Positions 519 through 63,442 of a stretch of DNA of 64,000 nucleotides are shown in pieces; the stretch's first letter is position 1; every line of letters starts with the position of its first letter. The stretch is from Minisyncoccota bacterium (GTDB taxonomy: Bacteria; Patescibacteriota; Minisyncoccia; Phycocordibacterales; GWA1-40-21). The position numbers and the translations under genes are program-made. Location of the stretch: positions 3,454 to 67,453 of the forward strand of contig JBBACS010000001.1 in NCBI GenBank assembly GCA_041656855.1. The letters run 5' to 3'. Under the pieces are notes generated by a model, which was not told the DNA's origin, did no database searches, and saw nothing but the letters and a program-made list of their open reading frames with translations.

Positions 519-519
519 T

Positions 520-659
520 TCACCCGTTAAAGTTTTTGCCAATGTTTGTTAAAAATTCATTAAATAAACAAAATCATGGTTTTAGATAAAAGTAATTTGA
601 TAGTATTGGTTGTTATGTCAAAACAAACAATTTTTATTGGCAAAAATTTTCTCGGGTAA
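520..659 (+). repeat. CCCG/CGGG-clamped palindromic element, family A copy A1 (140 nt); 3' arm abuts ATG 660
   Basis: Left arm TTCACCCGTTAAAGTTTTTGCCAAT (520-544) and right arm ATTGGCAAAAATTTTCTCGGGTAA (636-659) are imperfect reverse complements; same termini at 4018-4157 (minus) and 28949-29181. Confidence 0.85.
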
Positions 660-1425: not shown

Positions 1426-4017
1426 TTATTTAATTTTTATAGGGATTGTCGCCTCACCTTTATTATAGACACTATCATAAACTACCACCTTAAGTTCATT
1501 GATGCCTACAATAAAAGAATTAGTTCCTGATGGTACAAAATTTAATATATACGGATATGTCTCGGATGTTCCTATGAGCTCGTTATTTAAGTAAAAATTA
1601 GCTCTAGTAATGGGAAAACGTGCCATTGTAGAGAACACCACACCTAATCTATAATCCTTATCATATTCAAGATTTTGTAACGGAGCAAGAATTGTTACTT
1701 TTGGTTTATTTGCTTCGATGTGTATGTCATCATATGTGGTTGGTTTGCTAGTAGAAGCTTGCGGATGTGTTAGGAGCCAGTTTTGTACAGAAAATTCCCA
1801 AGCAAGAAATTGCGAATCATTCTCGGGGTTTATCGGGGCTGGACCTAAAGGATCATTTTTATCTACCCAATAAAGTATTGAGTGTATGTTTGGTATAGCC
1901 ACTTCTACTTTTGTTTCTTCCGGTGTCATATCCGTAGCAAGTTTACCTGATATTTTATCTATAAAATAAGTTTCATTTCCTTGCCATATTCCTCGGAGCA
2001 CTGGTTTGATTGTTTGATCAATTTCAGTGGGTTTTATAAAAGTTTCTCCTGTGGTACTTGCAAGAGCCGCTGCCATAACCTCATGCCACAATGGAGCCAA
2101 GATTGTTCCCGCAACTTTTTTTACCATAGGTTTGCCGCTATTGTTTCCAGCCCAAGCTCCTACAACTATTTCTGGTGTGTATCCAATAGTCCAAACATCT
2201 TTATAGTTATCCGTGGTTCCTGTTTTTGAGGCAACTTGTTTGCCATGAAAAAATAATGGAGAATTTATTCCATAAGCTGGAATTTTAGCAATGACATCAG
2301 ATAAAACATCGGAAATTGTTTCTGCAATGTTTGGATTAAGAACTGTTTGCGGATTTTGTGTGAAAGTTTCTAAAACATTTCCTTGTAAATCTTCCACAGA
2401 AAGAATTCCCGTATAAGGATTTCTGATTCCGTCGTTTGCAAAAACGCCATATGCACTCGTCATATCAAGCAAAGAAACTTCAGCGCCTCCAACAACTAAA
2501 GTTAAACCATATTGGTTTGAATCTTTAAGTCCTTTTACACCCATGGACGTTGCGGTTTCTATTGAATCTTTTATTCCAGCAAGATATAAAGTTTTTATAG
2601 CCGGAATGTTTCTAGATTGAGCCAAAGCATTTCTTAAAGATATGGGTCCTACATATTGGTTATCATAATCTTCGGGCATATAACATGCCGTAGAGGAAGA
2701 AATAACAGCAGTTGGATCTATAGGCAAACCTTCTGGAGTACAAGTGGTTTGAAATTCTGTTGGAAGATCGAAAACAACCGTGTCTGGCGTATATCCTTTT
2801 AGAAATGCAGTAGCATATACAAAAGGTTTAAATGTAGATCCTGGCTGTCTATTGCGTGCTATGGCCACATTAAAATTACCATCTATTTCTTTATCAAAAT
2901 AATCTCTAGAGCCGACCATGGCCAATATTTGTCCTGTTTTTGGATCTATTGCAACAACGGAAGCATTTTCTGCATCAAATTCTATTTTATTTTCAAGGGC
3001 TTTCCTTTTTGTTATTTCTTCAGCTTTTACTTGTAAATCATAATCAAGCGTGGTGATTATTTTAAATCCTTTTTGTTGTACTGCATCTTCACCGTATTTA
3101 TCTACTAAGTATTGTTTTATAAATTCTACAAAGTGTGGTGCCTTTATCCCGTATTTTTCTTGTGGAAGAAACGCTATTACTTCTTTTATTGCTTTGTCAT
3201 ATTCTTCTTGAGTGATGAATTTGTTTTCAAGCATCTTTGAAAGAATAAGTTTTTGTCTTGTATCTAACTGAACTTTATTTTGTCCATAAGGTGAATAATA
3301 AGTAGGTGCTTTTGGGATTGCAGCCAGATAGGCAGCCTCACCAAGAGTTACATCTAACGCTTTTTTACCAAAAAAAGTTTCACTTGCTTGTTCAACGCCA
3401 TAAATAGTTCCACCGTAGGGGTTTCCATTTAAATAAACAGATAATATTTCGTCTTTTGTCATTACTTTTTCAATTTCTATAGAAAGGACCCATTCTTTTA
3501 ATTTTCTAGAAATACTTTTTTCGGTTGTGAGCAATGAATTTTTGACTACTTGTTGTGTGATGGTGGAACCTCCTTGGCTAAAACTGCCAGAAAATATATT
3601 AGCAAACACAGCTCTTATGAAAGAAGAGATTTTTATTCCGCCATGTTGATAAAATTCAACATCTTCTATTGCTATCGTTGCATTTTTTATATCTTTAGAA
3701 ATATCTCCGAAAGGAACCACTGTTCTTTTTTTGCCCTCATGTATATCGTAAAGTAATATTTTCCCTGTGCGATCATATATTTTTGTAGACTGTGTTACGA
3801 TTCTTGTATCAAAAGATTGTAAGTCTGGCATTTGAAATGTGGAAATCCACAAAGCAATAAAACCACAAAAAACAAAAAATAAGGCAGATATTATAATAAA
3901 TATTTGCTTAGGATTCTTTTTTATAAAATGCAGAGTTTTTCTTGTTTTTGGTTTAATGTGGTGCTCAAAACTGTGCTTTATATGGTGTCTAGCTATCTCT
4001 AGCTTGTCTTTTAACAT
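1426..4017 (-). CDS. class A penicillin-binding protein (transglycosylase + transpeptidase) with C-terminal extension
   Basis: N-terminal TM; glycosyltransferase motifs EDVEFYQHGG, GGSTITQQ, RKLKEW; transpeptidase motifs STFKP, SRN, KTGTT. Confidence 0.9.
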   Translation of the reverse strand: MLKDKLEIARHHIKHSFEHHIKPKTRKTLHFIKKNPKQIFIIISALFFVFCGFIALWISTFQMPDLQSFDTRIVTQSTKIYDRTGKILLYDIHEGKKRTVVPFGDISKDIKNATIAIEDVEFYQHGGIKISSFIRAVFANIFSGSFSQGGSTITQQVVKNSLLTTEKSISRKLKEWVLSIEIEKVMTKDEILSVYLNGNPYGGTIYGVEQASETFFGKKALDVTLGEAAYLAAIPKAPTYYSPYGQNKVQLDTRQKLILSKMLENKFITQEEYDKAIKEVIAFLPQEKYGIKAPHFVEFIKQYLVDKYGEDAVQQKGFKIITTLDYDLQVKAEEITKRKALENKIEFDAENASVVAIDPKTGQILAMVGSRDYFDKEIDGNFNVAIARNRQPGSTFKPFVYATAFLKGYTPDTVVFDLPTEFQTTCTPEGLPIDPTAVISSSTACYMPEDYDNQYVGPISLRNALAQSRNIPAIKTLYLAGIKDSIETATSMGVKGLKDSNQYGLTLVVGGAEVSLLDMTSAYGVFANDGIRNPYTGILSVEDLQGNVLETFTQNPQTVLNPNIAETISDVLSDVIAKIPAYGINSPLFFHGKQVASKTGTTDNYKDVWTIGYTPEIVVGAWAGNNSGKPMVKKVAGTILAPLWHEVMAAALASTTGETFIKPTEIDQTIKPVLRGIWQGNETYFIDKISGKLATDMTPEETKVEVAIPNIHSILYWVDKNDPLGPAPINPENDSQFLAWEFSVQNWLLTHPQASTSKPTTYDDIHIEANKPKVTILAPLQNLEYDKDYRLGVVFSTMARFPITRANFYLNNELIGTSETYPYILNFVPSGTNSFIVGINELKVVVYDSVYNKGEATIPIKIK

Positions 4018-4157
4018 TTACCCGAGAAAATTTTTGTTGATGAAAATGTGTTGAGGTTATATGAGTAAGTAGTTTTTAAATAGATATACTCTTGTAAAAG
4101 AATACCTTCTATTTAACCCTCATTTTCAACACGTCAACAAAAACTTTAACGGGTGAA
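4018..4157 (-). repeat. family A palindromic element copy A2 (140 nt), minus orientation; 3' arm abuts PBP start codon
   Basis: Minus strand reads TTCACCCGTTAAAGTTTTTGTTGAC...CATCAACAAAAATTTTCTCGGGTAA-ATG; inner stem GTTGA/TCAAC differs from A1 but remains complementary. Confidence 0.85.
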
Positions 4158-6652: not shown

Positions 6653-9600
6653 TTAGACCACCAAATTCATATTTATAACTCCAGTCTTTATTTCTATAGC
6701 TTCTGTCTTGAACACTTCTGTATAAGTCCCATCATCCTTTTTCTTTTCTACTTTGATGGAATATTTTCCATTAGGTACAAGAGCATAATAAGCCCCAAAT
6801 TTGTCAGCAATTTTCTTTGTAAGCGGAGTATCTTCACCTTCTCTGAATATGGAGACGATAGCAAAGGATAGAGGAGCTTTTGTATGTTTTTCAGTAAGAG
6901 TACCTGATTTCTTAGTCTTGAGTACTACATAATTTAATATGTAAGCTACTATATAGAATCCTGCGATAATGAAGTTGTATGGTGCAGGTGCAAAGATAAC
7001 GGCAATGAAGGCAACTATGGCACCGATAAAGAAGATGACGCTTGATATCTTGGCCCAAGTAATATCTTTTTGCTTCATGAATTTATTTACATTCATCTTG
7101 GTCTTGGCAAATTCATTCCAATCAAATGATAGAGAGTCCATAGGAATATTTTTTGTAATAATTGCGCCTTCTGTTTCAACTGTCATCTCTTCACCAAAAT
7201 ATAAATCATTGTAGACTTCATCAAATGATCTACCTGCCATTTTCTTTGATGGCTGAATATAATTTGTTTTTGTTGCAACTATTTTGTATTTACCTGGTAA
7301 TACAAGGAATCCATATCTTCCATCTATATCTGTAATAGCTCCTGCTACTTCCTTTCCTGTCTCTATACTGATTAGAGATACATACACAGGGTCTAGAGGT
7401 CTCTTTGTGACTGAATCATAGACTGTACCCCATTGTCTTTGTTTTCTCTTTATACCAAGAGCACTGAGAAGCAAGGCAAGTATTCTTGCAGGAATCAACC
7501 ATATTTCAGAGAAAGATATTGGAGTAGCAAAGGCAATTGCTGATATAGATATTGTAGCTCCAGCAATTATACCTGTGGTTGAAATAACTTTTGTTACAGC
7601 AGATCCAGTAGGAGTATTTACTATTGCTCTTGTATTAGCGATTGCATTCTTGGCAATAGATATTACTTGGTCATAACCTTGTTTTGCAGATACACCTATA
7701 TCAGGAACAACGTTCTGATTTGTTTCTGTTCCTGCACTAGTTTCAGTTTGTTGTTCTTGAGTTGGAGTTTCTACTATATCGGTAATTACTTCTGGAATTG
7801 TATTTTCTGGAGCTTTTGGTGTTTCAACTTTTGGAATTACAGGAGCAGAAACTTCTGGAATTGTCTCACATCCTAAAATATCATTTGCTTTCTTTCTTGT
7901 AGCATTTCCAAAGTTTCCAGTTCCTTCTGCTAGACCAAATGGAGCTAATATATCATCTGCATAATATTCTTGGAATGAATGAACTGCAAGTATTGTTTTT
8001 GAACCATAGTAAGTTGTTTCTGAACCTTTTGTTGATGCATTAAATCCTTGGCTGTTTAGGAATATTTGTAGATTTTTTATATCTGAATCTGTTGTGTATT
8101 GATGAAGATTTTTAGTAAAGCAGAAGCCTGAAGGAAGATTAGGAGTTGATGTAACCCCCGGTGCTTCTTCTATTTCTTCAGTAGAAGAAGATGTTGCAAG
8201 TGCTAATGTTGTGGTTGTTGAAGGAACTGTAGAAACTTCTGTAGAGCCTGATGATGGAGAACGGTGTCCACTACTCAAAGCTAAAGTGGTGAATGTAGCA
8301 TCACTTGAATAAGTAGTACCTAAACGATCTGTGATGAAAGCTTGGTAGTGGTATGTGGTGCTAGCTGATAATCCCGTAATATCTGCAGAATATTCACCTG
8401 TAGAAAAAGATCCGGGTTCAGTATATACCGCGGCAACATTCATGCTTCCAATTTTATTTTTATTTACAGCAAATCCAGATGATTCTTTTGTGGTCATTGC
8501 ATATTCCGTGGTAGTACCATATCTGAAACCTCTTGCGGTTATTGTTTCTCCTGCTGTGCTTGTGATGTTTGCTTTCAATGTTGCTGATATATCAGCAACT
8601 ATAGGTGTTTCCAATTCCACATCACGAACAGAAATAATTGACCCGAAAACTGATGAAGAGAAATAACTAAAATTTCCCGCTGCATAAAGAGTGGACCCTG
8701 ATAAGGATAAAGTATATGCAGTAGTCATATGGTCACCTGATTGAGGATTCGGATTAAAACTTGTCGTGGTTGCGACGTCAAGATCATATGCCGCAAGACT
8801 ATTACGCGTTAGACCATTAAAAGTAGTAAAACTTCCTCCCACAAAAAGAATAGAGTCAAATATGGTCATCGTTCGTACAGAAGAACCTGTAGTTGGAATT
8901 ATATTTAAACTTGTCGTAGTTGCGTTTACAAGATCATATGATGCGATGCTTTTTCTAGGTAAACCACCGAAATTGGTAAAATATCCGCCAGCATAGAGAG
9001 TAGAGGTTGCTATTAATAAAGAATTTATTGTTGATGAGTCACCAGGATTTGGGATTGGACCAGGATTAAAATCTGTAGTGGTAGCGTTTGCAATATCATA
9101 TGCGGCAAGACGGTTACGATCGAGGTCTCCAAAAGTGGTAAAATTTCCTCCCACATAAAGAGTTGAACTTGATATGGTGAGAGCATTTACAACAGCAGGG
9201 GTACCTCCCACACCTGGATTAAAATCTGTCGTAGTAGCTGTGAGAATATTGTATGCAGCTATATTATTACGATTGAAACCACCAAAGGTATCAAATTGTC
9301 CTCCCGCGTATAAAATGTCATCTGATATCGCTATGGAATATACATAAGGGGAAAAGCCGGCTCTTGTTATTCCTGGATCAAAATCTGTAGTAGTGTCTGT
9401 GAGAAGATTATATGCCGCAAGGTCACTACGTGTCAGACCATCAAAAATATCAAACCAACCACCCACATAAAGTATATTGTCTGATATAGTCAAAGTGTAT
9501 ACGGCGTGTCCACTATACCATCCTACATTTGGATTAAAATCTGTTGTATTTCTATTTACAAGATCATATGCAGCTAGCCTGTTTCTTGTTTGGCTACCCA

Positions 9601-10882
9601 AAAGATCAAATGTACCCCCTATATAAAGAGTAGAATCTGATAAAGCTAATGTTTTAACTGCACTTCCCGCGTTCACAATCAAATCTGAAGTAGTAGCATT
9701 TGCAAGATCATAAATAGCAAAATTGGTGCGTGGCAGTCCTCCAAAAGTAGTAAATTCGCCACCAATATAAAGATAGGAATCTGATACAGCCAAAGTATAT
9801 ATGGCAGAATTAGCTCCTGCACCTGGATCAAAATCCGTAGTAGTAGCATTTACAAGATCATATGCGGCTATTTTAATACGATCTAATCCTTCAAAGGTAC
9901 TAAACTGACCCCCTACGTAAATAATACCATCTGATATAGTCAAAGCTTTTACGGCGTTGGCACCAATATTTAAACTAAAATCTGTAACGGTGTCTGTAAG
10001 GAGGTCATATGCTGCAAGATAATTACGTCCGAGTCCACCAAAGTTAGTAAAACCTCCACCAGCATAAAGAGTAGAGCTTGATACAGCCAAAGCATACACA
10101 GCAGCATTTGGGCTTGGATTAAAATCTGTAGTAGTCGCATTTATAAGATCGTATGCGGCAATATTGTTGCGTCCTAAATTACCGAAGTCAGAGAATTCAC
10201 CACCGACGTAAAGTGTAGAACTTGATACTACTAAAGAATATATTGACTGCCCTGTATAGGTACTATTTGGATTAAAGCTTGTTACTGTAGCATTTGTAAT
10301 ATCATATGCCGCTAAACTATTACGAGGCAGACCATAAAATGAAGGGAAAGCTCCACCAACATAAAGTATATTATCCGATATGGTCAAAGATCTCACGGCA
10401 TATTCTCCCATATCTGGATTAAAACTAGAATCTACGGTTCCATCAGCTAATATATGTGCCATACCATTTCTTGCTTGGTTATCAACATATGTAAAAGCTC
10501 CTCCTATATACCAGCCTCCTGCTCCATCGCTGACTGAAGCATAAACCTCACCTATAACCTGAGGATAAGAAGCCACCGCTTGTCCAGTAGAAACATTTAT
10601 AGGTACTCCCGCTCCCGTACATGCTCCAACTTCAGTGAAGCTTCCTCCGTAATATAAGATTGAGCCTTCTATTAATGATGTATATATGGATCCATTGGTA
10701 CAGACACCAAGTGATTCGGGTGAATCAAAAACTGCGGCGAGATTGTATGATTTAAGACTAAAAATCTTTTTCCAGTTTTCTTTTGGAACAGATATTAATG
10801 CTAAAGCAACAAGTATAAGTAGCAAAAAGAAAATCAGAAAAGAAGAGGATTTTGTTTTTGTTTGTGGTGTTTTATTTTCCAT
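6653..10882 (-). CDS. giant membrane-anchored surface protein: beta-propeller-type repeats, PG-binding-like domain, C-terminal CarboxypepD_reg-like domain and TM helices
   Basis: N-terminal TM; about 13 repeats of LYVGG.F..FGGL.RN.LAAYDL.NATTTDFNP (delta-60/DUF5122-like); NLQIFLNSQGF...YYGSKT (PG_binding_1-like); DIDGRYGFLVLPGKYKIVATK. Confidence 0.8.
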   Translation of the reverse strand: MENKTPQTKTKSSSFLIFFLLLILVALALISVPKENWKKIFSLKSYNLAAVFDSPESLGVCTNGSIYTSLIEGSILYYGGSFTEVGACTGAGVPINVSTGQAVASYPQVIGEVYASVSDGAGGWYIGGAFTYVDNQARNGMAHILADGTVDSSFNPDMGEYAVRSLTISDNILYVGGAFPSFYGLPRNSLAAYDITNATVTSFNPNSTYTGQSIYSLVVSSSTLYVGGEFSDFGNLGRNNIAAYDLINATTTDFNPSPNAAVYALAVSSSTLYAGGGFTNFGGLGRNYLAAYDLLTDTVTDFSLNIGANAVKALTISDGIIYVGGQFSTFEGLDRIKIAAYDLVNATTTDFDPGAGANSAIYTLAVSDSYLYIGGEFTTFGGLPRTNFAIYDLANATTSDLIVNAGSAVKTLALSDSTLYIGGTFDLLGSQTRNRLAAYDLVNRNTTDFNPNVGWYSGHAVYTLTISDNILYVGGWFDIFDGLTRSDLAAYNLLTDTTTDFDPGITRAGFSPYVYSIAISDDILYAGGQFDTFGGFNRNNIAAYNILTATTTDFNPGVGGTPAVVNALTISSSTLYVGGNFTTFGDLDRNRLAAYDIANATTTDFNPGPIPNPGDSSTINSLLIATSTLYAGGYFTNFGGLPRKSIASYDLVNATTTSLNIIPTTGSSVRTMTIFDSILFVGGSFTTFNGLTRNSLAAYDLDVATTTSFNPNPQSGDHMTTAYTLSLSGSTLYAAGNFSYFSSSVFGSIISVRDVELETPIVADISATLKANITSTAGETITARGFRYGTTTEYAMTTKESSGFAVNKNKIGSMNVAAVYTEPGSFSTGEYSADITGLSASTTYHYQAFITDRLGTTYSSDATFTTLALSSGHRSPSSGSTEVSTVPSTTTTLALATSSSTEEIEEAPGVTSTPNLPSGFCFTKNLHQYTTDSDIKNLQIFLNSQGFNASTKGSETTYYGSKTILAVHSFQEYYADDILAPFGLAEGTGNFGNATRKKANDILGCETIPEVSAPVIPKVETPKAPENTIPEVITDIVETPTQEQQTETSAGTETNQNVVPDIGVSAKQGYDQVISIAKNAIANTRAIVNTPTGSAVTKVISTTGIIAGATISISAIAFATPISFSEIWLIPARILALLLSALGIKRKQRQWGTVYDSVTKRPLDPVYVSLISIETGKEVAGAITDIDGRYGFLVLPGKYKIVATKTNYIQPSKKMAGRSFDEVYNDLYFGEEMTVETEGAIITKNIPMDSLSFDWNEFAKTKMNVNKFMKQKDITWAKISSVIFFIGAIVAFIAVIFAPAPYNFIIAGFYIVAYILNYVVLKTKKSGTLTEKHTKAPLSFAIVSIFREGEDTPLTKKIADKFGAYYALVPNGKYSIKVEKKKDDGTYTEVFKTEAIEIKTGVINMNLVV
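8695..10525 (-). repeat. in-frame tandem coding repeats (about 47 aa / 141 nt each) inside the 1409-aa gene
   Basis: Recurring ...STLYVGG.F..FGGL.RN.IAAYDL.NATTTDFNP... units in the translation; boundaries approximate. Confidence 0.75.
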
Positions 10883-15061: not shown

Positions 15062-16045
15062 ATGGAAAAAATAATAAATACAACTAAATATATGAAAGCT
15101 ATAAAATTCGTTTTGATTGCGGTAGCTTTTGCTATAACTTCACCAGTAATGGTATTGGCAGATGAGTACACATACACAGATACTTATGTAAATGGTGAAA
15201 ATAATACTACTGATACTTACGTAAATGGAGAAACTTATACCTACACAGATACTTATATAGACGGTGAAAATTATACTTATGTTGATACATACGTAGATGG
15301 AGAAAATTATACTTATGCAGATACATATGTAGAGGGTGATTATGCTCAATCAACTTATTATCCAACTACTATGAGCCAAGTTTATTCTGGGGGTTATTCA
15401 TTGGGAACCTCTTATAGAACACCTTCAACATATTATTCTTATGGACAACCATCTACTGTTGTTTCAGGAGGTTTTTCAGCACCGCCAAGTTATTATGTAC
15501 AACCTCCAACATATTATGTACAACCATCTACTGTAACTTCAGGAAGTTTCAATGGAGCAAGTCCAACATACTACACTCAACCAGTTACACAGTATGTTCC
15601 AAATCAAGTTTTGGCTTACACAGACACAAACCCAAGCTTAGATTCAGTCTACTTGAGTGATATTCCAGCAACAGGTTTTGAGGATACACTTCCAATGATA
15701 ATTTTTATTTCATCTCTAGTACTTTGGAGTGCAATATTAGCCTATGTATTTTTGAAAAGAAAAATTGAGGCACAAACAATATTTGCTAGTGCTTATGTAA
15801 ATAAAGCCGAAGCAAAAGGTACTGACAATTCTGTAGTTTCAGAATTTATGAATCAAATTGCTTCTGACAATTCAGATATAAGCAAAGTTGAGGAATATGC
15901 AAGAACAAATAAAATATTACTTTCAGGAGATGCATCAGCTAAAATTGTAAAACTTTCAAGACTCGGACAAATCAATGCTTCTGACTATATAAGAGGTATT
16001 GCAACAGGTGAATGGATAGCAATAGGAGAAGCTCAAATCAAGTAA
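15062..16045 (+). CDS. secreted/membrane repeat protein, function unknown
   Basis: Signal peptide, YTY.DTYV.GEN tandem repeats, Y/P/S/T-rich segment (PPSYYVQPPTYYVQPSTV), one TM helix, cytoplasmic C-terminal domain. Confidence 0.7.
   Translation: MEKIINTTKYMKAIKFVLIAVAFAITSPVMVLADEYTYTDTYVNGENNTTDTYVNGETYTYTDTYIDGENYTYVDTYVDGENYTYADTYVEGDYAQSTYYPTTMSQVYSGGYSLGTSYRTPSTYYSYGQPSTVVSGGFSAPPSYYVQPPTYYVQPSTVTSGSFNGASPTYYTQPVTQYVPNQVLAYTDTNPSLDSVYLSDIPATGFEDTLPMIIFISSLVLWSAILAYVFLKRKIEAQTIFASAYVNKAEAKGTDNSVVSEFMNQIASDNSDISKVEEYARTNKILLSGDASAKIVKLSRLGQINASDYIRGIATGEWIAIGEAQIK
15166..15340 (+). repeat. in-frame tandem repeat of about 33-36 nt (YT(Y)xDTYVxGEN units)
   Basis: GATACTTATGTAAATGGTGAAAAT... 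recurs about five times with variation. Confidence 0.8.
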
Positions 16046-16050
16046 ATAGT

Positions 16051-16096
16051 ACGTCGCGCCTATAGGACGGTTGCGCGGCGTGACTCCGCAAAGTCA
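16051..16096 (+). repeat. GC-rich two-hairpin motif, family C copy C1
   Basis: ACGTCGCGCCTATAGGACGGTTGCGCGGCGTGACTCCGCAAAGTCA aligns with 24974-25021 and 33172-33217. Confidence 0.8.
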
Positions 16097-16126
16097 AAAA
16101 GCAGGCCTTAAATATGGCCTGCTTTT
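16097..16126 (+). terminator. intrinsic terminator
   Basis: AAAAGCAGGCC-TTAAATAT-GGCCTGCTTTT. Confidence 0.8.
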
Positions 16127-16197: not shown

Positions 16198-17061
16198 ATG
16201 GCTGATACAGCTTTTGAGCCTTACCTTCAAACAAAGGAAAGGCGTGAAAAGGAAGCAAAGGAAAAATTTAACGCCGAGCAAGAAGAAAAAGAAAAAATTA
16301 GAAAAGAAAGGGAGATAATTGAAGAGGAAGAAAGAAAAAAGGCTGAAAAAGCAAGAAAAATCCTTTTGAAAGAATCTCACTGGACGTCTGATTTTTTTGA
16401 AAAAGCAAAAGATGTACTTTCAAAAAAAAGCGCTGATTCCAGCGCAAAAAAACAGGAGGAAGATATGAAAAACTGGATTGTCTGGCTTATTGTTGCGGTA
16501 TTGGTAATTTTTATTGCAGTCGACAAAGGGTGCAACAAAAAAATGGGGAATGTAAACCCGACAGCGGCGGCAACAGTAACAGAAACAGTTATCCCCGTTC
16601 CTGAATCATCTACGATGATTAAGAATGGAGGATCTTCAGTTGAAGTGGACGTTAAGGTAAAAGTTTCTGGGATTTCTGGAAAATCTGCAGTTGTAAAATC
16701 AGCAGATGTTTCTGAAAAACCTGCAGTCGCAAAAGAAGTTGCTCCTGCACCGAAAGCAGTTTCCCGTCAGATTATAACGGGAAATGCAATCGCAGTATTT
16801 AATGATTACTCTTCCAATTTGACTGAAATCTGGGTATATGGAAAAGGAGGAGTGATTGCCAAGGTGCCCGCTAACGAAACTAATGTAATTCACTACAGGG
16901 GTGATACATTGGCGGTAAGAATCGAGCTTCACAAAGATCAGTGTTCTCCCAAAATCCTGTGGGAAAAGAAACTCACTGGAGGAGTATGCGTGATAAAATG
17001 CAGCGATGAAGGTTTTGTCGCATCAAACGATCAGAGCATTCTCCCCCTGAGAAAAGGATAA
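16198..17061 (+). CDS. hypothetical membrane protein (K/E-rich N-terminus, one TM, C-terminal domain)
   Basis: 287-aa ORF with strong SD GGGAGGTGA (16182-16190); visibly GC-richer. Confidence 0.65.
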   Translation: MADTAFEPYLQTKERREKEAKEKFNAEQEEKEKIRKEREIIEEEERKKAEKARKILLKESHWTSDFFEKAKDVLSKKSADSSAKKQEEDMKNWIVWLIVAVLVIFIAVDKGCNKKMGNVNPTAAATVTETVIPVPESSTMIKNGGSSVEVDVKVKVSGISGKSAVVKSADVSEKPAVAKEVAPAPKAVSRQIITGNAIAVFNDYSSNLTEIWVYGKGGVIAKVPANETNVIHYRGDTLAVRIELHKDQCSPKILWEKKLTGGVCVIKCSDEGFVASNDQSILPLRKG

Positions 17062-17079
17062 GGGATAATATCCCACAAA

Positions 17080-17105
17080 CCCCGCAAAGCGAAAGCAATG
17101 CGGGG
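17080..17105 (+). terminator. intrinsic terminator
   Basis: CCCCGCA...TGCGGGG followed by TTTTATTTTT. Confidence 0.75.
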
Positions 17106-17137
17106 TTTTATTTTTGTGTTAAAATTGAAATACTTGT

Positions 17138-17250
17138 CCCGTTATAAATAACGAGATGAATCAATAAATATATATTGGTTAGTAAAAAATATATAATTTA
17201 TAAAAAGAAGTAGATATGACATTAATAGGCATAAATAATTTATAACTGGG
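17138..17250 (+). repeat. leader inverted repeat whose 3' arm abuts the tsaE ATG
   Basis: CCCGTTATAAAT (17138-17149) pairs with ATTTATAACTGGG (17238-17250, one bulge); ATG at 17251. Confidence 0.65.
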
Positions 17251-17721
17251 ATGAAAATAGTTAGCAAAAGCCTTTCTGATACACAAAAAATAGCCGAGGA
17301 TTTCATAGGTAAAATATCTATGGAGGTTTATAATAATGCACTTGTTGTTGGGCTTTATGGAGATTTAGGTTCTGGAAAAACTACTTTTACTCAAGCTGTG
17401 GCAAAAATTTTTAGTATTAAAGAAGATATAACAAGTCCGACTTTTGTTATTGAAAAAATATATGATATTTCTCACCCCAGTCAAATAAAAAGCCAATTTG
17501 ACGGGGCAAGCAAAGATTTCAAAAAACTTATTCATATAGATGCATATCGTTTGGATTCTGCAAAAGAACTTTCTGCGCTTGATTGGGATAAAACATTAGC
17601 TGATTCAAGAAATATTATTTTTATAGAATGGCCAGAAAGAGTATTAGAAGTATTGCCAGAAAATCATGCAAAAATAAATTTTAAATTTTTGAGCGAGAAT
17701 GAAAGAGAAATTGAAATATAA
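17251..17721 (+). CDS. tsaE: tRNA t6A37 biosynthesis ATPase TsaE
   Basis: Walker A GDLGSGKTTF, SPTFVIEKIY, HIDAYRL. Confidence 0.85.
   Translation: MKIVSKSLSDTQKIAEDFIGKISMEVYNNALVVGLYGDLGSGKTTFTQAVAKIFSIKEDITSPTFVIEKIYDISHPSQIKSQFDGASKDFKKLIHIDAYRLDSAKELSALDWDKTLADSRNIIFIEWPERVLEVLPENHAKINFKFLSENEREIEI
17474..17506 (+). repeat. 33-nt family B palindromic element inserted in frame in tsaE
   Basis: ACCCCAGTCAAATAAAAAGCCAATTTGACGGGG; 32/33 identical to 50546-50578 in argS; encodes PSQIKSQFDGA. Confidence 0.9.
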
Positions 17722-17745: not shown

Positions 17746-17789
17746 ACTACTAACCTCATCTACGCCATGGCGTAGATGAGGTTAGTAGT
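17746..17789. repeat. 44-bp perfect palindrome P1 (core CATCTACGCCATGGCGTAGATG)
   Basis: ACTACTAACCTCATCTACGCCATGGCGTAGATGAGGTTAGTAGT; likely also the tsaE terminator hairpin. Confidence 0.9.
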
Positions 17790-17804: not shown

Positions 17805-18185
17805 ATGAATAAATCAAGAAGATATAAAGGTGTTCCAATAAATTCTTTTGGTATTCCAATACTTAATCCAACTAAAGAAAAAATAAAAGATAAGATTGAT
17901 AGAAGAATTTATCACGATAGTTTTTCAATAAATTTAACTAATTCTTCACCAAAGAATCTTATTGTTATGTATGATATTCCCCATGCACAGAAAAAGGAGA
18001 GAGATTGGTTTCGTAGACATTTAAAAAAGTTTGGTTACATAATGATTCAAAAAAGTGTTTGGGTCGGACCATCCCCGCTACAAAAAGATTTTTTGGAATA
18101 TGTTAAATCCATTGGTTTACTTGGCCAATTAAAATCTTTTAAATTAGCAAAATCATACACAGGTAAAGAAAACTTATTTAAATAA
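17805..18185 (+). CDS. orphan Cas2-fold (Cas2 / PaaX C-terminal-like) protein with about 50-aa N-terminal extension
   Basis: Ferredoxin-like pattern LIVMYDIP-(helix KKERDWFRRHLKKFG)-YIMIQKSVWVG typical of Cas2/PaaX_C; no cas1 or CRISPR array in window. Confidence 0.55.
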   Translation: MNKSRRYKGVPINSFGIPILNPTKEKIKDKIDRRIYHDSFSINLTNSSPKNLIVMYDIPHAQKKERDWFRRHLKKFGYIMIQKSVWVGPSPLQKDFLEYVKSIGLLGQLKSFKLAKSYTGKENLFK

Positions 18186-18204: not shown

Positions 18205-18230
18205 TACATCTACGCCATGGCGTAGATGTA
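18205..18230. repeat. 26-bp perfect palindrome P2 (same 22-bp core)
   Basis: TACATCTACGCCATGGCGTAGATGTA followed by GGGTGTGTTGTTTTTT. Confidence 0.9.
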
Positions 18231-21258: not shown

Positions 21259-22356
21259 CTATTTTTGTGATTCCAAGAATTTAATCACAGCATCATTTAT
21301 TAGAACCATTTCAACATAAGCTTTCACTCTTTCTGGATCGGCACCTTTATATTGTTCTATAAGATGTTTAATTTCTTTTTCCATCTGTTCTTTGTTTGGT
21401 TCTATTTTTTCTTCCAAAGATATTTTTTGCAAGATAAGCTGAGTTTTAGCTCTCTTTTCTGCATCAGGGTGCCACTCCTTTCTCAAGTCCTCCCAAGTCT
21501 TTTTGATATGTTTTAAATATTCTTCTGGTTGAAGTCCCATTTGTGCTATATCAGCTTTAAATTGTCCCTCCATTTTATCAAGCTCACTTTCAATGACGAC
21601 TTTTGGCATTTCTATTTTTGTTTCTGTAACAAGTTTTTCTAGCATCTTGCCTCTCTTCAGATCTTTTGCGTGAATTTCTTTTTCTTTCCCAATATTTATT
21701 TTTAGTTTTGCTCTAAAATCTGCTACGTCTTTAAAATCACCAAGTTTTTTTACAAACTCATCATTAATTTCAGGAAGTTCTATTTCATCATGCTTACAGT
21801 CAGGTCCATGGGTGTGACTTGCCCCGTGAAGTTCTGAATTCTCAGAACTTTTTACGGGGTTTTGTTCCGCGTACATTTTTCTTATCTGTTCAATCGTTTC
21901 CTCAACTTGTTTTTCAGTAACTTCCTCTACTTTTTCTTCCACAGAATTTTCTTTTTTAGCAATTTTTTTATAGTCAGGAAGTTTTACTTCTGGCATTATT
22001 GTCACTTTGATTTTGAATTCAATAGGGGAGCCAAGTGCAATCTTACTTATTGCAATACCCGGTCTTCCAAGAAAATTTACTTTTGATTCTACAAGTATTT
22101 CTATAACACAATCATTGATAGCCATTTCCCCAGCATCTTCAAGGATTCCCATTTCTCCAAATTTTTCTTTTAAAGTAGCATCAGGAACATGTCCTTTTCT
22201 AAAACCAGGAAGTTCTGCGACCTCTTTTATTTTTTTGAAAGCTTTTATTTTATAATCTTCCAAAGCCTTAGTTGTTATCTCTGCTGTTATTTCCACTTCA
22301 CAATCAGGAAGTTTCTTTGTGTCTTTTATTTTATATATTTTATCTTCATTTTTCAT
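21259..22356 (-). CDS. tig: trigger factor, short form apparently lacking the PPIase domain
   Basis: N-terminal ribosome-binding domain with PGFRKGHVP; C-terminal arm domain; 365 aa, no FKBP-like segment seen. Confidence 0.85.
   Translation of the reverse strand: MKNEDKIYKIKDTKKLPDCEVEITAEITTKALEDYKIKAFKKIKEVAELPGFRKGHVPDATLKEKFGEMGILEDAGEMAINDCVIEILVESKVNFLGRPGIAISKIALGSPIEFKIKVTIMPEVKLPDYKKIAKKENSVEEKVEEVTEKQVEETIEQIRKMYAEQNPVKSSENSELHGASHTHGPDCKHDEIELPEINDEFVKKLGDFKDVADFRAKLKINIGKEKEIHAKDLKRGKMLEKLVTETKIEMPKVVIESELDKMEGQFKADIAQMGLQPEEYLKHIKKTWEDLRKEWHPDAEKRAKTQLILQKISLEEKIEPNKEQMEKEIKHLIEQYKGADPERVKAYVEMVLINDAVIKFLESQK
21822..21859. repeat. palindromic element inserted in frame in tig
   Basis: CCCCGTGAAGTTCTGAATTCTCAGAACTTTTTACGGGG; minus-strand translation NPVKSSENSELHGAS parallels NPSQMKSQFDGAS in argS. 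Confidence 0.8.
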
Positions 22357-24625: not shown

Positions 24626-24667
24626 GATGATTTTCTTAGCGAACGATAGTGAGGTTAGAAAATCATC

Positions 24668-24702
24668 ACCCCGTCAAATTGTATTTTCATTTGACTGGGG
24701 TG
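24668..24702 (-). repeat. family B palindromic element (short form)
   Basis: CACCCCGTCAAATTGTATTTTCATTTGACTGGGGTG on plus strand = family B motif in reverse orientation. Confidence 0.85.
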
Positions 24703-24742
24703 GCTCCATATTCTTACCACCGTTCAATTAATTAATAATGTG

Positions 24743-24800
24743 ACCCCAGTCAAATACTTGCTACGCAAGTTTTTCGCTATACGCGAAAATTTGACGGGGT
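24743..24800 (+). repeat. family B palindromic element (58 nt, with nested hairpins)
   Basis: ACCCCAGTCAAAT...ATTTGACGGGGT; loop carries ACTTGC-TAC-GCAAGT and TTTTCGC-TATAC-GCGAAAA. Confidence 0.85.
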
Positions 24801-24898
24801 TTAGAAAAATATAGTCGCTATACTCCTTATTTTTCTAAAAAAACGAGCCCGCCTTTCGGGCGAACTTCAATAAACACATATTATCAGTATTTAGTCTT

Positions 24899-24927
24899 TT
24901 GTCAATTGTCTATATCTTTGGTACAAT
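24899..24927 (+). promoter_or_regulatory. candidate promoter for the 1271-aa gene
   Basis: TTGTCA, 17-nt spacer, TGGTACAAT extended -10. Confidence 0.5.
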
Positions 24928-24973: not shown

Positions 24974-25021
24974 ACGTCGCGCTTAATGAACGGCTGCGCT
25001 TGACGTGATTTTGCAAAATCA
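24974..25021 (+). repeat. family C two-hairpin motif, copy C2; second hairpin abuts ATG 25022
   Basis: ACGTCGCGCTTAATGAACGGCTGCGCTTGACGTGATTTTGCAAAATCA-ATG. Confidence 0.8.
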
Positions 25022-28948: not shown

Positions 28949-29181
28949 TTCACCCGTTAAAGTTTTTACTAACGCATTATGCACGATACACCTGTTTTTA
29001 TAGTGTTTATTTTAATTTATATACCATTTTTATATATAAAACGAAACCGACTTATCGCATAATGCAAAAAAGTTATTTTTAGGTTAAAATATAGAGTAGT
29101 TATATGAATATGGTCTCTTCAAAAAATAGTATACAAAAAGTCGCCCATAACTTTTTTATTAGTAAAAATTTTCTCGGGTAA
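28949..29181 (+). repeat. family A palindromic element copy A3 (233 nt); 3' arm abuts pilB ATG
   Basis: TTCACCCGTTAAAGTTTTTACTAA ... TTAGTAAAAATTTTCTCGGGTAA-ATG; inner hairpin CGCATTATGC/GCATAATGCG-like. Confidence 0.85.
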
Positions 29182-30948
29182 ATGATATTAGAAAGCAAAC
29201 AGCTCAAAGATTTTTTAATAGATACAGGTCTTGTAACTAAGACCGAGTATGATGATATAGAAAATTTTATAAAAAAAGGCAAAAAAAAAGATTCTCCTGA
29301 AAAAGTTTTGGTAAGTCAAGGAAAAATTTCTGAAGATGATTTGCGCAGAGCACAAGCTTATGTGTTTGGTATACCTTTTGTAGATTTAAGAAATCAGAAA
29401 ATTGATTTTGCTGTTTTATCTCTAATTCCTGAACCTCTCGCTCGTAAAAACAATATAATTGCATTTAAGAAAAATGCCGATTCTCTTGAAGTTGCGATGC
29501 TAGATATTAATGATTTGCCGGCTATTGAATTTATAAAAAAGAAAGTTGGATTAAAAATTTTACCAAGGCTTACTGATTCAGTATCTATAAAAGGAGCTAT
29601 GCTTCAATATCAAAAAAGTTTGAAAGCAGAGTTTGGTGATTTGATACAAAAAGACGTCCAAGCTCTTAAAAATTCTGGCCATCTAGAAATAGGAATAAAA
29701 GATGAGACAATAGAGGAGTCATTGAAGAAAATGGCAGAAGACCTTCCAGTTGTTCGTATTGTGGAAACACTTCTTAAACATGCTGCATTACAAAATGCTT
29801 CTGATATTCACATAGAGGTTATGGAAAATGACGTACTCATTAGATATAGAATTGATGGAATCCTACATGATGCCATGGTTCTACCAAAAAATGCGGCAAC
29901 AAGCATTACCGCTAGAATAAAAGTTCTTTCAAATCTAAAGCTTGATGAAAAAAGATTGCCTCAAGATGGAAGATTCAAGATTGATATAAATGGAGAAAAG
30001 GTTTCATTTAGAGTTTCTGTCATTCCTACATATTTTGGGGAGAAAACCGTCATGAGATTGCTTCGAGAAAATGTTGGATCATATTCTTTGGAATCTATGG
30101 GTTTCCACGGGACAAATTTAGAAAGAATTCACGAGGCGATTAAAAAGGCAAATGGAATGATTCTCACAACTGGTCCTACGGGTTCTGGTAAAACAACAAC
30201 TCTTTATACAATTTTGGAATTATTAAATTCTGCTGATGTAAATATCGCCACCATTGAAGACCCTATTGAATATCAGGTAGCTAGAATAAATCAAACCCAA
30301 GTAAAGCCCGAAATTGGTTTCACTTTTGCAAATGGTCTGCGTTCTTTAGTCAGGCAGGATCCAGATATAATAATGGTAGGAGAAATTAGAGATAATGAAA
30401 CAGCATCTCTAGCGGTTAACGCAGCTCTTACAGGGCACATGGTGCTTTCAACTTTGCACACAAATTCTTCTGCGGGTGCTATTCCAAGACTTATGGATAT
30501 GAAAATAGAGCCGTTTCTTCTTGTTTCTACTATTAATATTATTTTGGCCCAGAGACTTATTAGAAAACTTACAAAAGAAAAAGAAAAATATCTTTTATCT
30601 AAAGCGGAATTATTATCCTTGGGGAGAATTGTAGATTTAAATAAAGTTTTAGAGACATTGAAAGCAGAAAATATAGTAGGAAAAGATGATACTTGGGAAA
30701 ATATTTATTTTTATAAAGCGAAAGAATCTATAGAATCAAAAGATGGTTATTCAAGCAGAATTGGTATTCACGAAATACTTAAGATGACCCCATCAATAAG
30801 AGACCTTGTCATGAAAGGCTCTACATCACAAGAGATAGAAGCACAGGCAAAAAAAGAAGGTATGCTGTCTATGATTGAAGATGGAATATTTAAATGTGTT
30901 ACAGGCATGACAACAATAGAAGAAGTGTTAAGGGTTGTTTCAGAATAA
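29182..30948 (+). CDS. pilB: type IV pilus assembly ATPase PilB/GspE family, paralogue 2
   Basis: T2SSE N-domain, Walker A GPTGSGKTT, DPDIIMVGEIRD, GHMVLSTLHTN; no tetracysteine motif. Confidence 0.9.
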   Translation: MILESKQLKDFLIDTGLVTKTEYDDIENFIKKGKKKDSPEKVLVSQGKISEDDLRRAQAYVFGIPFVDLRNQKIDFAVLSLIPEPLARKNNIIAFKKNADSLEVAMLDINDLPAIEFIKKKVGLKILPRLTDSVSIKGAMLQYQKSLKAEFGDLIQKDVQALKNSGHLEIGIKDETIEESLKKMAEDLPVVRIVETLLKHAALQNASDIHIEVMENDVLIRYRIDGILHDAMVLPKNAATSITARIKVLSNLKLDEKRLPQDGRFKIDINGEKVSFRVSVIPTYFGEKTVMRLLRENVGSYSLESMGFHGTNLERIHEAIKKANGMILTTGPTGSGKTTTLYTILELLNSADVNIATIEDPIEYQVARINQTQVKPEIGFTFANGLRSLVRQDPDIIMVGEIRDNETASLAVNAALTGHMVLSTLHTNSSAGAIPRLMDMKIEPFLLVSTINIILAQRLIRKLTKEKEKYLLSKAELLSLGRIVDLNKVLETLKAENIVGKDDTWENIYFYKAKESIESKDGYSSRIGIHEILKMTPSIRDLVMKGSTSQEIEAQAKKEGMLSMIEDGIFKCVTGMTTIEEVLRVVSE

Positions 30949-31463
30949 CATACGAATAATACACGAATGATACGAATGGATTACGAATAATCTTAATTTT
31001 TAGATGCAAAATAAAAAAGTTGGAGAAAAAGTTATATTTCCAGAATTATCTTATATTGTTAATGGTATTTTATTCTCTGTGCACAATGAGCTTGGTAGAT
31101 TTGCTAGAGAAAAACAGTACAGTGATCTTTTAGAAGGTAAATTAAAAGAAATTAAGTTGCCATATAAACGGGAATTATCTGTATCAGATTCAGGTAATAT
31201 AATAGATTTTATTATTGACAACAAAATTGTAATAGAAATTAAAGCTATCAGATTTCTGACAAAAGATTCTTATAGACAGATACAAAATTATTTGCAACAA
31301 ACAGGTTTTAAACTTGGTTTTCTCGTTAATTTTAGAAGTGAATTTCTGAAAATAGTTAGGATTATTAATATAAGTGAATAGTTTTTATTTGGGTGTTTGT
31401 AGTGTATAATTTGTTGTATTATTCGTAATCATTCGTAATATTCGCATAACATTCGCATCGTAT
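30949..31463 (+). mobile_element. candidate inserted cassette: GxxExxY gene bracketed by inverted arrays of ACGAAT-containing units
   Basis: 30949-30992 has 4x ACGAAT; 31418-31463 has 4x ATTCG (reverse complement); sits between pilB and pilC. Confidence 0.45.
31004..31381 (+). CDS. GxxExxY family protein (PD-(D/E)xK nuclease-like fold)
   Basis: 125 aa; ...FAREKQYSDLLEGKL..., IDFIIDNKIVIEIKA, QIQNYLQQTGFKLGFLVNF match the family pattern as I recall it. Confidence 0.7.
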   Translation: MQNKKVGEKVIFPELSYIVNGILFSVHNELGRFAREKQYSDLLEGKLKEIKLPYKRELSVSDSGNIIDFIIDNKIVIEIKAIRFLTKDSYRQIQNYLQQTGFKLGFLVNFRSEFLKIVRIINISE

Positions 31464-33171: not shown

Positions 33172-33217
33172 TCGTCGCGCTTAAATGACGGTTGCGCGAC
33201 GTGATTTCGCAAAATCA
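33172..33217 (+). repeat. family C two-hairpin motif, copy C3
   Basis: TCGTCGCGCTTAAATGACGGTTGCGCGACGTGATTTCGCAAAATCA; perfect 8-bp stem CGTCGCGC/GCGCGACG. Confidence 0.85.
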
Positions 33218-33223
33218 ACCTGT

Positions 33224-33324
33224 CCCGTGTGAAATTCATCGGATGTAATATAAAGTTTCGTAAGAATAAGAATAAAAAATATAAAATGTTAAAAAGTATC
33301 AATAATTTAAAATTTCTTTGCGGG
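33224..33324 (+). repeat. leader inverted repeat (family A' subtype, 101 nt); 3' arm abuts ATG 33325
   Basis: CCCGTGTGAAATTC ... AAAATTTCTTTGCGGG-ATG; near-identical arms at 45892-45991 (minus). Confidence 0.8.
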
Positions 33325-41468: not shown

Positions 41469-41567
41469 TTTTGTTTGTATTTTATGGTACTATATTTTAG
41501 TAGCCCCCTCGGGGGTTTTTAAATACAAATTTAATAAATTCACGAGCGAAGCGACTATAATTTATTA

Positions 41568-41621
41568 ATCCATCCCCACTTTTATTTTTAAATGTTTTTA
41601 AAAATAAAAGTGGGGATGGAT
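41568..41621 (+). promoter_or_regulatory. 54-nt perfect hairpin upstream of secE
   Basis: 23-nt arms ATCCATCCCCACTTTTATTTTTA / TAAAAATAAAAGTGGGGATGGAT, 8-nt loop; 3' arm overlaps ATG 41620. Confidence 0.7.
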
Positions 41622-41661
41622 GATGATTTTAAAATTCACTTCGTTCATAATAAAATCAATC

Positions 41662-45891: not shown

Positions 45892-45991
45892 CCCGTAAAG
45901 AAATTTTAATGTTTTGATAATGTCGACAACTTGATCAATTGATTCTACACTTATTCAGTAATATTTTAATTTAGGTTGAATTTCACACGGG
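45892..45991 (-). repeat. leader inverted repeat (family A' subtype, 100 nt); 3' arm abuts ATG 45891
   Basis: Minus strand CCCGTGTGAAATTC ... AAAATTTCTTTACGGG-ATG, same arms as 33224-33324. Confidence 0.8.
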
Positions 45992-46078
45992 ACAAGTATT
46001 CTTAGAGTTTATCAAAAAATAATATAAAAACTAGTTAAAATTCGCTTTTTATTGAATTTTGCTCTAATATGTGTGGTA

Positions 46079-63404: not shown

Positions 63405-63442
63405 GGCTGATTTTTAATGAACGAAGTGAATGTAAAAATCGC

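Follow-up and report, generated by a model that had tools for sequence, protein, structure and literature searches.

Why the leader of tsaE should contain an inverted repeat whose last base is also the last base before the start codon is the question raised by the locus analyzed here, which lies in a stretch of 64,000 nucleotides (nt) of contig JBBACS010000001.1 from a Minisyncoccota bacterium (hereafter, the window; G+C content, ~33%). A first-pass annotation had described this repeat from the sequence alone, had counted ten gene starts abutted by a helix in the same way, none with a Shine-Dalgarno (SD) motif, and had taken such helices to be a recurring design. We propose a different origin. 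The 119-nt tsaE leader is probably a decayed, nonautonomous relic, comparable to a miniature inverted-repeat transposable element (MITE), of a small GIY-YIG nuclease cassette that targets start codons in Patescibacteria, and hairpins ending at ATG would be its insertion scars. This reading is built on the insertion relative to leaderless orthologues, the dispersed homology of the element, a GIY-YIG open reading frame (ORF) between related ends, the abutment of stop and start codons, ATGNN duplications in one subfamily, and covariation of the arms, each documented below.

The tsaE leader and its orthologous sites

The host gene is a clear tsaE (Pfam TsaE, E = 5e-29), and relatives of its product are all titled Candidatus Paceibacterota, Parcubacteria, or Patescibacteria, which places the window in a Paceibacteria-like genome of the Candidate Phyla Radiation (CPR). 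An exact search with the window's TsaE returned no identical protein. Sequence, coordinates, and the single bulge of the inverted repeat are all as first described: the 5' arm CCCGTTATAAAT forms 12 pairs with the 3' arm ATTTATAACTGGG, leaving one bulged T, across 88 intervening nt, and the tsaE ATG follows directly (Table 1). The arm duplex has a predicted energy of −10.3 to −11.4 kcal/mol. The leader as a whole gives z = −2.26 (4 of 200 shuffles fold equally well), and 13% of dinucleotide shuffles yield an equally good helix ending 0 to 3 nt before the tsaE ATG (P = 0.13). Judged by energy, the repeat hardly rises above chance.

The orthologous sites are more informative than the fold. More than 20 tsaE orthologues read TGnTAAAAT, 6 to 7 nt, and then ATG, the arrangement of a leaderless gene. 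For example, locus L010 (L numbers denote loci surveyed) has tgtgttaaaattgaaat directly before ATG; the window is identical for 17 nt, up to 17131, then carries 119 nt, and then reaches ATG. The site is empty in L002, L006, L008, L010, L208, and L209, among others (the TsaE proteins of L208 and L209 are 82 to 83% identical to that of the window), and filled in the window and in L001, L009, L012, L206, and L207. What fills it differs even between close relatives. In L206, where TsaE is 95% identical, the site reads ATGAT-CCCGTACGAAAT...ATTTCGTACGGG before ATG, with an interior unrelated to that of the window; L207 has CCCGTTAGAGAT...ATCTCTAACGGG before ATG; and a third element type, CCCGTAGTAGAATTTC...GAAATTTCACTACGGG before ATG, is found in L001, L009, and L012. 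Among the elements at this site, arm changes are compensatory (TTATAAAT with ATTTATAA, TACGAAAT with ATTTCGTA, and TTAGAGAT with ATCTCTAA), a pattern equally expected for the inverted repeats of a mobile element. Judged from these alignments, tsaE is ancestrally leaderless and its leader is an insertion. A translation-initiation helix selected gene by gene finds no support here, the leader being absent from most orthologues, which are leaderless.

Leaderless starts are common elsewhere in this genome as well, since 13 of 52 window genes have a −10-like hexamer 5 to 8 nt before ATG, with a peak at 6 nt. Genes that look leaderless, with a TATAAT-like box 6 to 7 nt before ATG, include those at 18305, 44798, 54615, 58597, and 60435, along with others. 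One of these is recO (54615; TTGACA, 17 nt, TAGACT, 6 nt, ATG), whose site lacks an element in the window but has one in L167. A clear GGAGG precedes only three or four window genes (1013, 16198, and 44111). A scan for the sigma-70 consensus found fewer matches than in shuffles and was uninformative on transcript starts. Scans of the whole window for tRNAs and for Rfam families at gathering threshold found no tRNA and 0 matches, respectively.

Repeats that abut start codons

The first-pass annotation would check its idea by local folding energies at gene starts, set against shuffled controls. In this window we took, for 52 starts, the best helix with a 3' strand ending 0 to 3 nt before the start codon. 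Six of the 52 reached P ≤ 0.05 against dinucleotide shuffles where 2.6 were expected, a weak excess, and there was no enrichment against non-start ATGs: a partner of −10 kcal/mol or better lies within 260 nt of 31% of non-start ATGs versus 27% of starts. Enumerating helices around all starts gave nine 3' ends at −1 to +3 versus about four expected, which is unconvincing. Because enrichment was absent relative to non-start ATGs and weak relative to shuffles, folding energy was dropped as the main evidence; the window comes close to the lack of statistical enrichment by which the annotation itself would have given up the idea.

The ten starts are a mixed set. Long-range helices of −19 to −25 kcal/mol precede 660, 4017(−), and 29182, related helices of 12 to 14 bp precede 17251, 33325, and 45891(−) with energies that are individually not significant (z = −2.3, −0.6, and −1.3), and 24625(−) has a local hairpin of 13 bp (z = −3.6). 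The helices at 25022 and 6222(−) reach only −2.3 kcal/mol with z > 0 and are not real. At 41620, a perfect 25-bp hairpin abuts the ATG; residue 20 of this ORF is the first of the SecE domain, so the true secE start may be the second ATG, at 41662. That hairpin (41565 to 41622, −36.7 kcal/mol, z = −10), with a TATAAT box on one side and secE on the other, overlaps the first in-frame ATG. Two abutted starts, 63404(−) (z = −2.6) and 31464, were missing from the list. The absence of SD motifs held: GGAG, GAGG, AGGA, and AAGG are absent from the 20 nt upstream of all nine listed starts scanned (all but 41620). Helices ending at starts do recur, in a pattern that is real and far from random, and what had been misread was its nature, as a translational device; the signal lies in sequence homology and not in folding energy.

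Six palindromic repeat copies abut an ATG in the window, and they fall into families that we label F1 and F3/tsaE type (Table 1). Copies 63 to 66% identical to the tsaE element along its full length stand in L009, L152, and L199 ahead of pilB-like, rpsU-like, and prepilin-peptidase-like genes. The layout of the tsaE element, AC(T/C)TGTCCCGT...AC(T)GGG directly before ATG, is shared with the F3 copies at 33325 and 45891(−), which read AC(T/C)TGTCCCGTGTGAAATT...AAATTTCTTT(A/G)CGGG before ATG; common to all is a start with ACTTGTCCCGT and an end with GGG against the ATG. A survey of 1.94 Mb of sequence for arm pairs of the form CCCGT...AC(T)GGG with at least 11 bp found 37, of which 22 abut an ATG. 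These results bear on whether the tsaE inverted repeat could be a chance match in AT-rich intergenic DNA. The shuffles that equal its abutting-helix energy and the many non-start ATGs with a comparable partner are what such a reading would predict; homology of the full 119 nt to copies elsewhere, the same termini at 33325 and 45891, and the 22 ATG-abutting arm pairs are not. On the sequences compared, the full-length homology and the arm-pair survey already contradict coincidence, which we regard as extremely unlikely.

The F1 family, with the general layout TTCACCCGTTAAAG...CTCGGGTAA before ATG, is the best sampled. In detail, its members consist of TTCACCCGTTAAAGTTTTT, a variable stretch, an interior, a matching variable stretch, and AAAAATTTTCTCGGGTAA immediately before ATG. 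With only the 5' arm of F1 as the probe, a scan of metagenome contigs recovered 47 unique complete elements of 95 to 300 nt, all in one orientation and located before about 30 different genes. In 43 of these, ATG follows directly, and wherever the sequence extends far enough that ATG opens a long ORF. Three of the four nonabutting copies are the shortest forms, of about 95 nt; one 95-nt element (L133, 7745 to 8040, minus strand) precedes not an ATG but a G+C-rich stretch lacking a long ORF. The two arms covary. Across 36 distinct arm pairs with 23 pairs per helix, 93.6% of cells pair, five pairs are doubly changed (e.g., AU 17/GC 16 and UA 20/CG 15), and the covariation score exceeded that of every shuffle and lay far above all slid controls. 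In many copies the first base of the element is also part of a −10-like hexamer, so that part of the 5' arm may be untranscribed.

An F1-like copy is also read through in frame inside a gene for an HI0933-like flavoprotein (46052 to 47434, plus strand), where it occupies about residues 170 to 199; the first Pfam HI0933 stretch ends at residue 167. Orthologues of this gene were sought among the relatives' loci as proof of an in-frame insertion, and none was found there. Two explanations of the F1 family were tried and rejected. Insertion of the IS200/IS605 type, or with duplication of TA or TAA, does not fit the flanks, and an upstream ORF (uORF) ending at the F1 TAA cannot be a general coupling device, as an ATG-initiated uORF is present in only about half of the copies.

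GIY-YIG cassettes with related ends

Both the F1 type and the type with TCCCGTACGAAAT ends include a longer element that encodes a protein between the same ends. Two F1 copies of 300 nt (L146 and L165) contain an 89-amino-acid (aa) ORF that begins just after the 5' arm and matches Pfam GIY-YIG above the curated cutoff (E = 1e-13 and 5e-14). Both ORFs end in ...SKNFLG followed by TAA, the last triplet before the host ATG. F3-type cassettes (L122, L210, and L218) have a parallel layout, consisting of TCCCGTACGAAAT, 4 to 8 nt, a GIY-YIG ORF of 86 to 88 aa, and the 3' arm ATTTCGTACGGGA. Their final codons, TTT CGT ACG GGA, are themselves the 3' arm, and the TGA stop overlaps the host ATGA. Cassettes are thus 275 to 300 bp long with a single ORF of 86 to 89 aa. 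The arms of the TCCCGTACGAAAT type are exactly those of the tsaE leader in L206, the decayed frame of which still reads ...ALFRTG before a stop. Within the window, the F1 copy before the pilB-like gene keeps the end of the same ORF: tblastn aligns 29101 to 29178 with residues 64 to 89 of the L146 ORF (62% identity, E = 2e-4), the only such remnant in the window. The short uORF in the window's tsaE leader, which itself stops earlier, is in the frame where TGA of the host ATGA would be the stop, as in full-length cassette ORFs that overlap the host start; no uORF is present in the other F3-type window copies (33325 and 45891).

The cassette ORF has at least 4,591 homologues at E ≤ 1e-5. Among the top 120, named sources are almost all Patescibacteria, and 79 proteins end in FLFRTG and 11 in FLSLTG, for which TGA within the host ATGA serves as the stop codon. 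The remaining C termini in this set mostly have two to four extra codons (...TG-C-I, ...TG-W-N-I, and similar), suggesting read-through of GGG-ATGN where the host start is ATG(T/G/C) instead of ATGA. Among solved structures, the closest relative is the UPF0213 protein PDB 1zg2 (BH0048; E = 4e-9 over residues 3 to 63), and a weak match to the NCBIfam model "group I intron endonuclease" (E = 4e-5) is below its cutoff. In a separate observation, L093 (about 3000 to 3340, minus strand) carries a GIY-YIG ORF flanked by a duplicated tRNA-like 5' half.

Flanking sequence provides further evidence of insertion. In the subfamilies marked by TCCCGTACGAAAT and TCCCGTTAGAGAT, 4 to 6 bp matching the start of the host gene recur in the 5' flank of at least 14 copies (Table 1). 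Where upstream sequence is visible (L218, L210, L206, and L001), the 5' copy of the duplication stands 6 to 7 nt after a −10 box, which indicates that the element entered a leaderless gene at its first nucleotides.

In the mechanism that we propose, an intact cassette comprises a 5' arm, a single ORF for little more than a GIY-YIG catalytic domain, and a complementary 3' arm that doubles as the last four to six codons of the ORF. It adjoins the host start codon on the 5' side, and because the host is usually a leaderless gene, the cassette lies directly downstream of the host −10 box and is presumably transcribed from it. The end of its ORF meets the host start in one of two ways: ...ACG GGA TGA shares bases with ATGA, or ...GGG TAA is followed by ATG. 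The inverted repeat would then stop at ATG because the ORF runs through the 3' arm to a stop codon on or beside the host start and because, in one subfamily, insertion duplicates the host's own ATGNN. As the sole ORF, the GIY-YIG gene would be the candidate for mobilizing the cassette, with a trans-acting helper also possible, and the ATGA or TAAATG junction may keep the host gene translated by termination-reinitiation. Decay of the ORF and deletion of the interior would leave the two arms as a MITE-like relic of 100 to 230 nt, as at tsaE, and F1 copies, from the shortest through the pilB-like copy with its 26 remaining codons to the 300-nt form, fit such a decay series. With a tsaE transcript beginning near 17132, where the conserved promoter would place it, the RNA could form the 12-bp helix, and translation of the nine-codon uORF could unmask this helix and hand ribosomes to tsaE.

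Several observations weigh against this origin of the tsaE leader. The tsaE copy reads TGAAAT, then ACTTGT...CTGGG, then ATGAAA, and its flanks contain no direct repeat that would mark a target-site duplication; nor does any of the five ATG-abutting copies surveyed in the ACNTGT subfamily, to which the window's tsaE type belongs (the 33325 copy has the flank ACCTGT, as in this subfamily). Flanking duplication was also not seen for F1. By tblastn, 17132 to 17250 contains no remnant of the GIY-YIG ORF, and a full-length cassette with tsaE-type arms (ACNTGT-CCCGTTRTAAA) was not found. The proposed link from the tsaE copy to the cassettes therefore rests on arm similarity (TCCCGT...AC(T)GGGATGA), position, and the L206 orthologue. 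Each identical GIY-YIG protein was present at one locus only across samples, and recent movement was not caught; moreover, an 86-aa protein that lacks a DNA-binding domain is cast as the mobilizing enzyme by inference. The F1 helices raise a further objection. A G.U pair is kept in 35 of 36 arm pairs, sense-strand helices are 3 to 6 kcal/mol better than antisense helices, and orientation is fixed, all of which selection on RNA structure would also give.

These last features also argue for a purpose-built RNA leader, in which the 5' end of the mRNA would pair just before the AUG to regulate or enable initiation without an SD motif, the repeat families being copies of a regulatory module. Arm covariation, the missing SD motifs, and the better-than-shuffled folds of the F1, tsaE, and nusA leaders (z = −7.4 to −2.3) would all fit. 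We nevertheless consider such a leader unlikely. It is absent from most tsaE orthologues, different elements fill the same tsaE site in close relatives, copies also occur inside coding sequences, and flanking duplications exist. In full-length copies the nuclease reading frame dictates the 3' arm, and transcription would begin within the 5' arm in the many F1 copies that have a −10-like hexamer over the first base. The lack of an Rfam match and the weak generic enrichment of abutting helices point the same way.

Another possibility is that the arms are a processing signal: an RNase specific for double strands or for structure would cut the base of the helix, and the mRNA would then start at or near the AUG, restoring leaderless translation after insertion. 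The wide use of leaderless starts and the length of some helices (23 bp in F1 and 20 bp in F3b) are compatible with this, as is an F1 element in L167 that lies between two cistrons with no obvious promoter. RNase III, RNase J, and PNPase have reportedly been kept in CPR genomes (PMC12641178), and for repeat-derived mRNA hairpins as substrates of RNase III there is a precedent in the Correia elements of Neisseria (PMC2649163). However, the tsaE and F3 helices, at 12 to 14 bp, are short for RNase III, a cut inside the helix would not leave an exact 5' AUG, and processing would account for a consequence of insertion and not for the presence of the elements. We rate it as decidedly improbable.

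Returning to mobile cassettes, we suggest, as a tentative possibility that goes well beyond the tsaE locus, a previously undescribed minimal class of bacterial transposon. Its members would be about 275 to 300 bp long with a lone GIY-YIG gene of 86 to 89 aa and inverted repeats of 12 to 25 bp, would insert at +1 to +5 of leaderless genes with duplication of ATGNN, would borrow the host promoter and pass ribosomes on through ATGA or TAAATG, and would decay to MITE-like relics that make structured leaders, with thousands of members across Patescibacteria. A search of the literature on leaderless translation in Patescibacteria, start-codon MITEs, and GIY-YIG elements with inverted repeats turned up no GIY-YIG cassette described as having inverted repeats, as abutting a start codon, or as flanked by ATGNN duplications, and the family is apparently undescribed.

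Table 1. Positions of features at the tsaE locus, of other repeat copies in the window, and loci with duplicated host starts
Feature	Position or locus	Strand	Remarks
Terminator-like hairpin and T run, ending the upstream gene (16198-17061)	17080-17109	+	CCCCGCAAAGCGAAAGCAATGCGGGG then TTTT; helix −16.7 kcal/mol; equivalent hairpin at the same place in relatives
Extended −10 box TGTTAAAAT of tsaE	17117-17125	+	TGnTAAAAT conserved 6-7 nt before tsaE ATG in >20 relatives
6-nt spacer TGAAAT	17126-17131	+	Runs straight into ATG in leaderless L010, L002, L208, and L209
Inserted palindromic element (probable MITE-like relic), 119 nt, entire tsaE leader	17132-17250	+	Absent at most orthologous tsaE loci; homologous dispersed copies
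5' arm CCCGTTATAAAT, terminal inverted repeat	17138-17149	+	
3' arm ATTTATAACTGGG, last base at −1 of tsaE	17238-17250	+	Homologous to 3' arms encoding the C terminus ...TG-stop of GIY-YIG ORFs
Nine-codon uORF, MTLIGINNL-stop	17216-17245	+	Read from sequence; stop 5 nt before tsaE ATG
tsaE, host gene	17251-17721	+	Pfam TsaE
F1 element, 141 nt	519-659	+	Fills whole gap from dnaN stop (518) to ATG 660; z = −4.4
F1 element, 140 nt	4018-4157	−	Abuts PBP1 start 4017; z = −7.4
F1 element, 233 nt	28949-29181	+	Abuts pilB-like start 29182; keeps 26 codons of GIY-YIG C terminus
F1-like copy, about 89 nt	46558-46647	−	Inside HI0933-like flavoprotein gene; helix −25.2 kcal/mol
F3 element	33218-33324	+	Abuts ATG 33325
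F3 element	45892-45997	−	Abuts 5'-nucleotidase gene start 45891
Duplication ATGGAT/ATGGAT	L130		
Duplication ATGGA	L033		
Duplication ATGTAT/ATGTAT	L210		
Duplication ATGT	L143, L202		
Duplication ATGAA	L001, L071, L078, L205, L218		
Duplication ATGA	L006, L008, L206, L207		

Known mobile elements and other repeats of the window

Among MITEs, the nearest functional parallel is provided by the Correia elements of Neisseria (CREE/NEMIS) (PMC2649163). These and other MITEs are short (about 100 to 150 bp), dispersed, and bounded by inverted repeats, often lie just upstream of genes with which they are cotranscribed, form mRNA hairpins, and have ends that can supply −10 boxes (PMC2649163, PMC2229807, PMC10969869), an organization that the elements described here appear to share. 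Correia elements duplicate TA, whereas the flanks here are ATGNN repeats or show nothing; they have no known autonomous parent, whereas the full-length parent here encodes a GIY-YIG nuclease; and they lie at variable distances from start codons, whereas the 3' repeat here ends exactly at ATG in about 90% of F1 copies and orientation is fixed.

Free-standing and intron-borne GIY-YIG homing endonuclease genes, such as those for phage T4 Seg proteins and I-TevI, are likewise selfish nuclease genes, located between host genes and dependent on host transcription. Homing enzymes of this kind have 200 to 250 aa with a separate DNA-binding domain, recognize one cognate site, rely on double-strand-break repair, and are not associated with inverted repeats or duplications. 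By contrast, the protein here consists of the catalytic domain only, and the elements stand before at least 30 different genes, with inverted repeats and, in one subfamily, flanking duplications of 4 to 6 bp. Homing to one cognate site does not describe them, because break repair produces neither such a range of hosts nor flanking duplications. Stand-alone GIY-YIG proteins of the UPF0213/YhbQ type (1zg2, BH0048) resemble the cassette product in being single-domain proteins of about 100 aa. To our knowledge, they have been treated as ordinary chromosomal genes of unknown function, and mobility, flanking repeats, or stop-start overlap has not been described for them.

Palindromes that survive in frame in coding sequences, here a 36-nt palindrome in tsaE and another gene and the F1-like copy of about 89 nt in the flavoprotein gene, recall the Rickettsia palindromic elements, for which we know of no nuclease-encoding parent and no start-codon preference. 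Within the same phylum, CPR rRNA genes carry insertions other than group I or II introns in which GIY-YIG ORFs have been noted; these were judged not to spread by homing (PMC11270868). Compared by description, those insertions differ in sitting in rRNA genes, and that report mentions no arms, start-codon relation, or short derivatives.

The window also contains other repeats. The palindrome inside tsaE is 32 to 36 nt long, (A)CCCCAGTCAAAT...ATTTGACGGGG(C) at 17474 to 17510, and adds 12 aa (HPSQIKSQFDGA) that 144-aa homologues lack. It recurs at 50546 to 50582, inside the coding sequence 49132 to 50838, and in two intergenic regions, 24669 to 24799 and 63444 to 63584. It has the ends of the tsaE leader as seen on the opposite strand, CCC(A)GT...ACGGG, and is probably the "family B" of the first-pass annotation. 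A perfect 22-nt palindrome, CATCTACGCCATGGCGTAGATG, occurs three times (17757 to 17778, 18207 to 18228, and 39262 to 39283); two copies flank a small gene (17805 to 18185), and the third is inside the coding sequence 38836 to 39648. In the trigger-factor gene, a 38-nt palindrome (CCCCGTGAAGTTCTGA...CAGAACTTTTTACGGGG, 21822 to 21859) separates the N- and C-terminal Pfam domains.

A second type of nuclease cassette, at 30945 to 31463, encodes a 125-aa PD-(D/E)XK_3 protein (ORF 31004 to 31381; Pfam E = 1.6e-20) between inverted arms built of TACGAAT repeats (30945 to 30991 and 31415 to 31463). Its 5' arm starts at the pilB stop, and its 3' arm ends at −1 of ATG 31464; in L010, a short version without the ORF lies directly against the nusA ATG. 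In the window, nusA has a true leader (24626 to 24905, minus strand) with a promoter (24905 to 24878) and an attenuator-like hairpin (24866 to 24846), as in relatives. Palindromic repeats then occupy about 200 nt, along with a 13-bp hairpin that stops at ATG; the 3' strand of this hairpin, AAAATCATC, matches the relatives' ancestral A-rich leader (aaaaatcaac before ATG). The motif GATTTT...A(T/C)TCACT(A)TCGTTC...AAAATCANC, directly before ATG, is common to the leaders at 63405 to 63446 (minus strand), 41620 to 41661 (plus strand, secE), and 24626 to 24668 (minus strand, nusA), which points to a further start-abutting repeat or regulatory family.

Another repeat family, CGTCGCGC...GCGCGRCGTGAYTYCGCAAARTCA, is found after stops or before starts at 16052 to 16097, 24975 to 25021, and 33173 to 33218. 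The variant CTCCGCA of the 16052 copy can pair with TGCGGGAGG, the SD region of gene 16198 (−17.6 kcal/mol; P = 0.01 versus shuffles). Tandem repeats within coding sequence comprise units of ~150 nt at 8661 to 10401 in a 1,409-aa ORF (6653 to 10882, minus strand) and units of 36 nt at 15167 to 15349 in a 327-aa ORF (15062 to 16045).

The element family is more interesting than the translational design first proposed. We know of no bacterial insertion-sequence family that uses a GIY-YIG nuclease or targets start codons. If our reading is correct, few autonomous mobile elements known would be as small as this one, of 280 bp and with a single protein of 86 aa, and such a parasite could be harmless in a compact genome with almost no spare intergenic DNA, taking a leaderless promoter and returning translation through a stop-start overlap. 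Thousands of CPR genes annotated as "GIY-YIG nuclease" or "excinuclease ABC subunit C" may then be selfish cassettes, and their relics would cause N-terminal misannotations, such as "TsaE" models of 163 to 181 aa. The same relics would turn leaderless genes into genes with structured leaders, providing raw material for new regulation.

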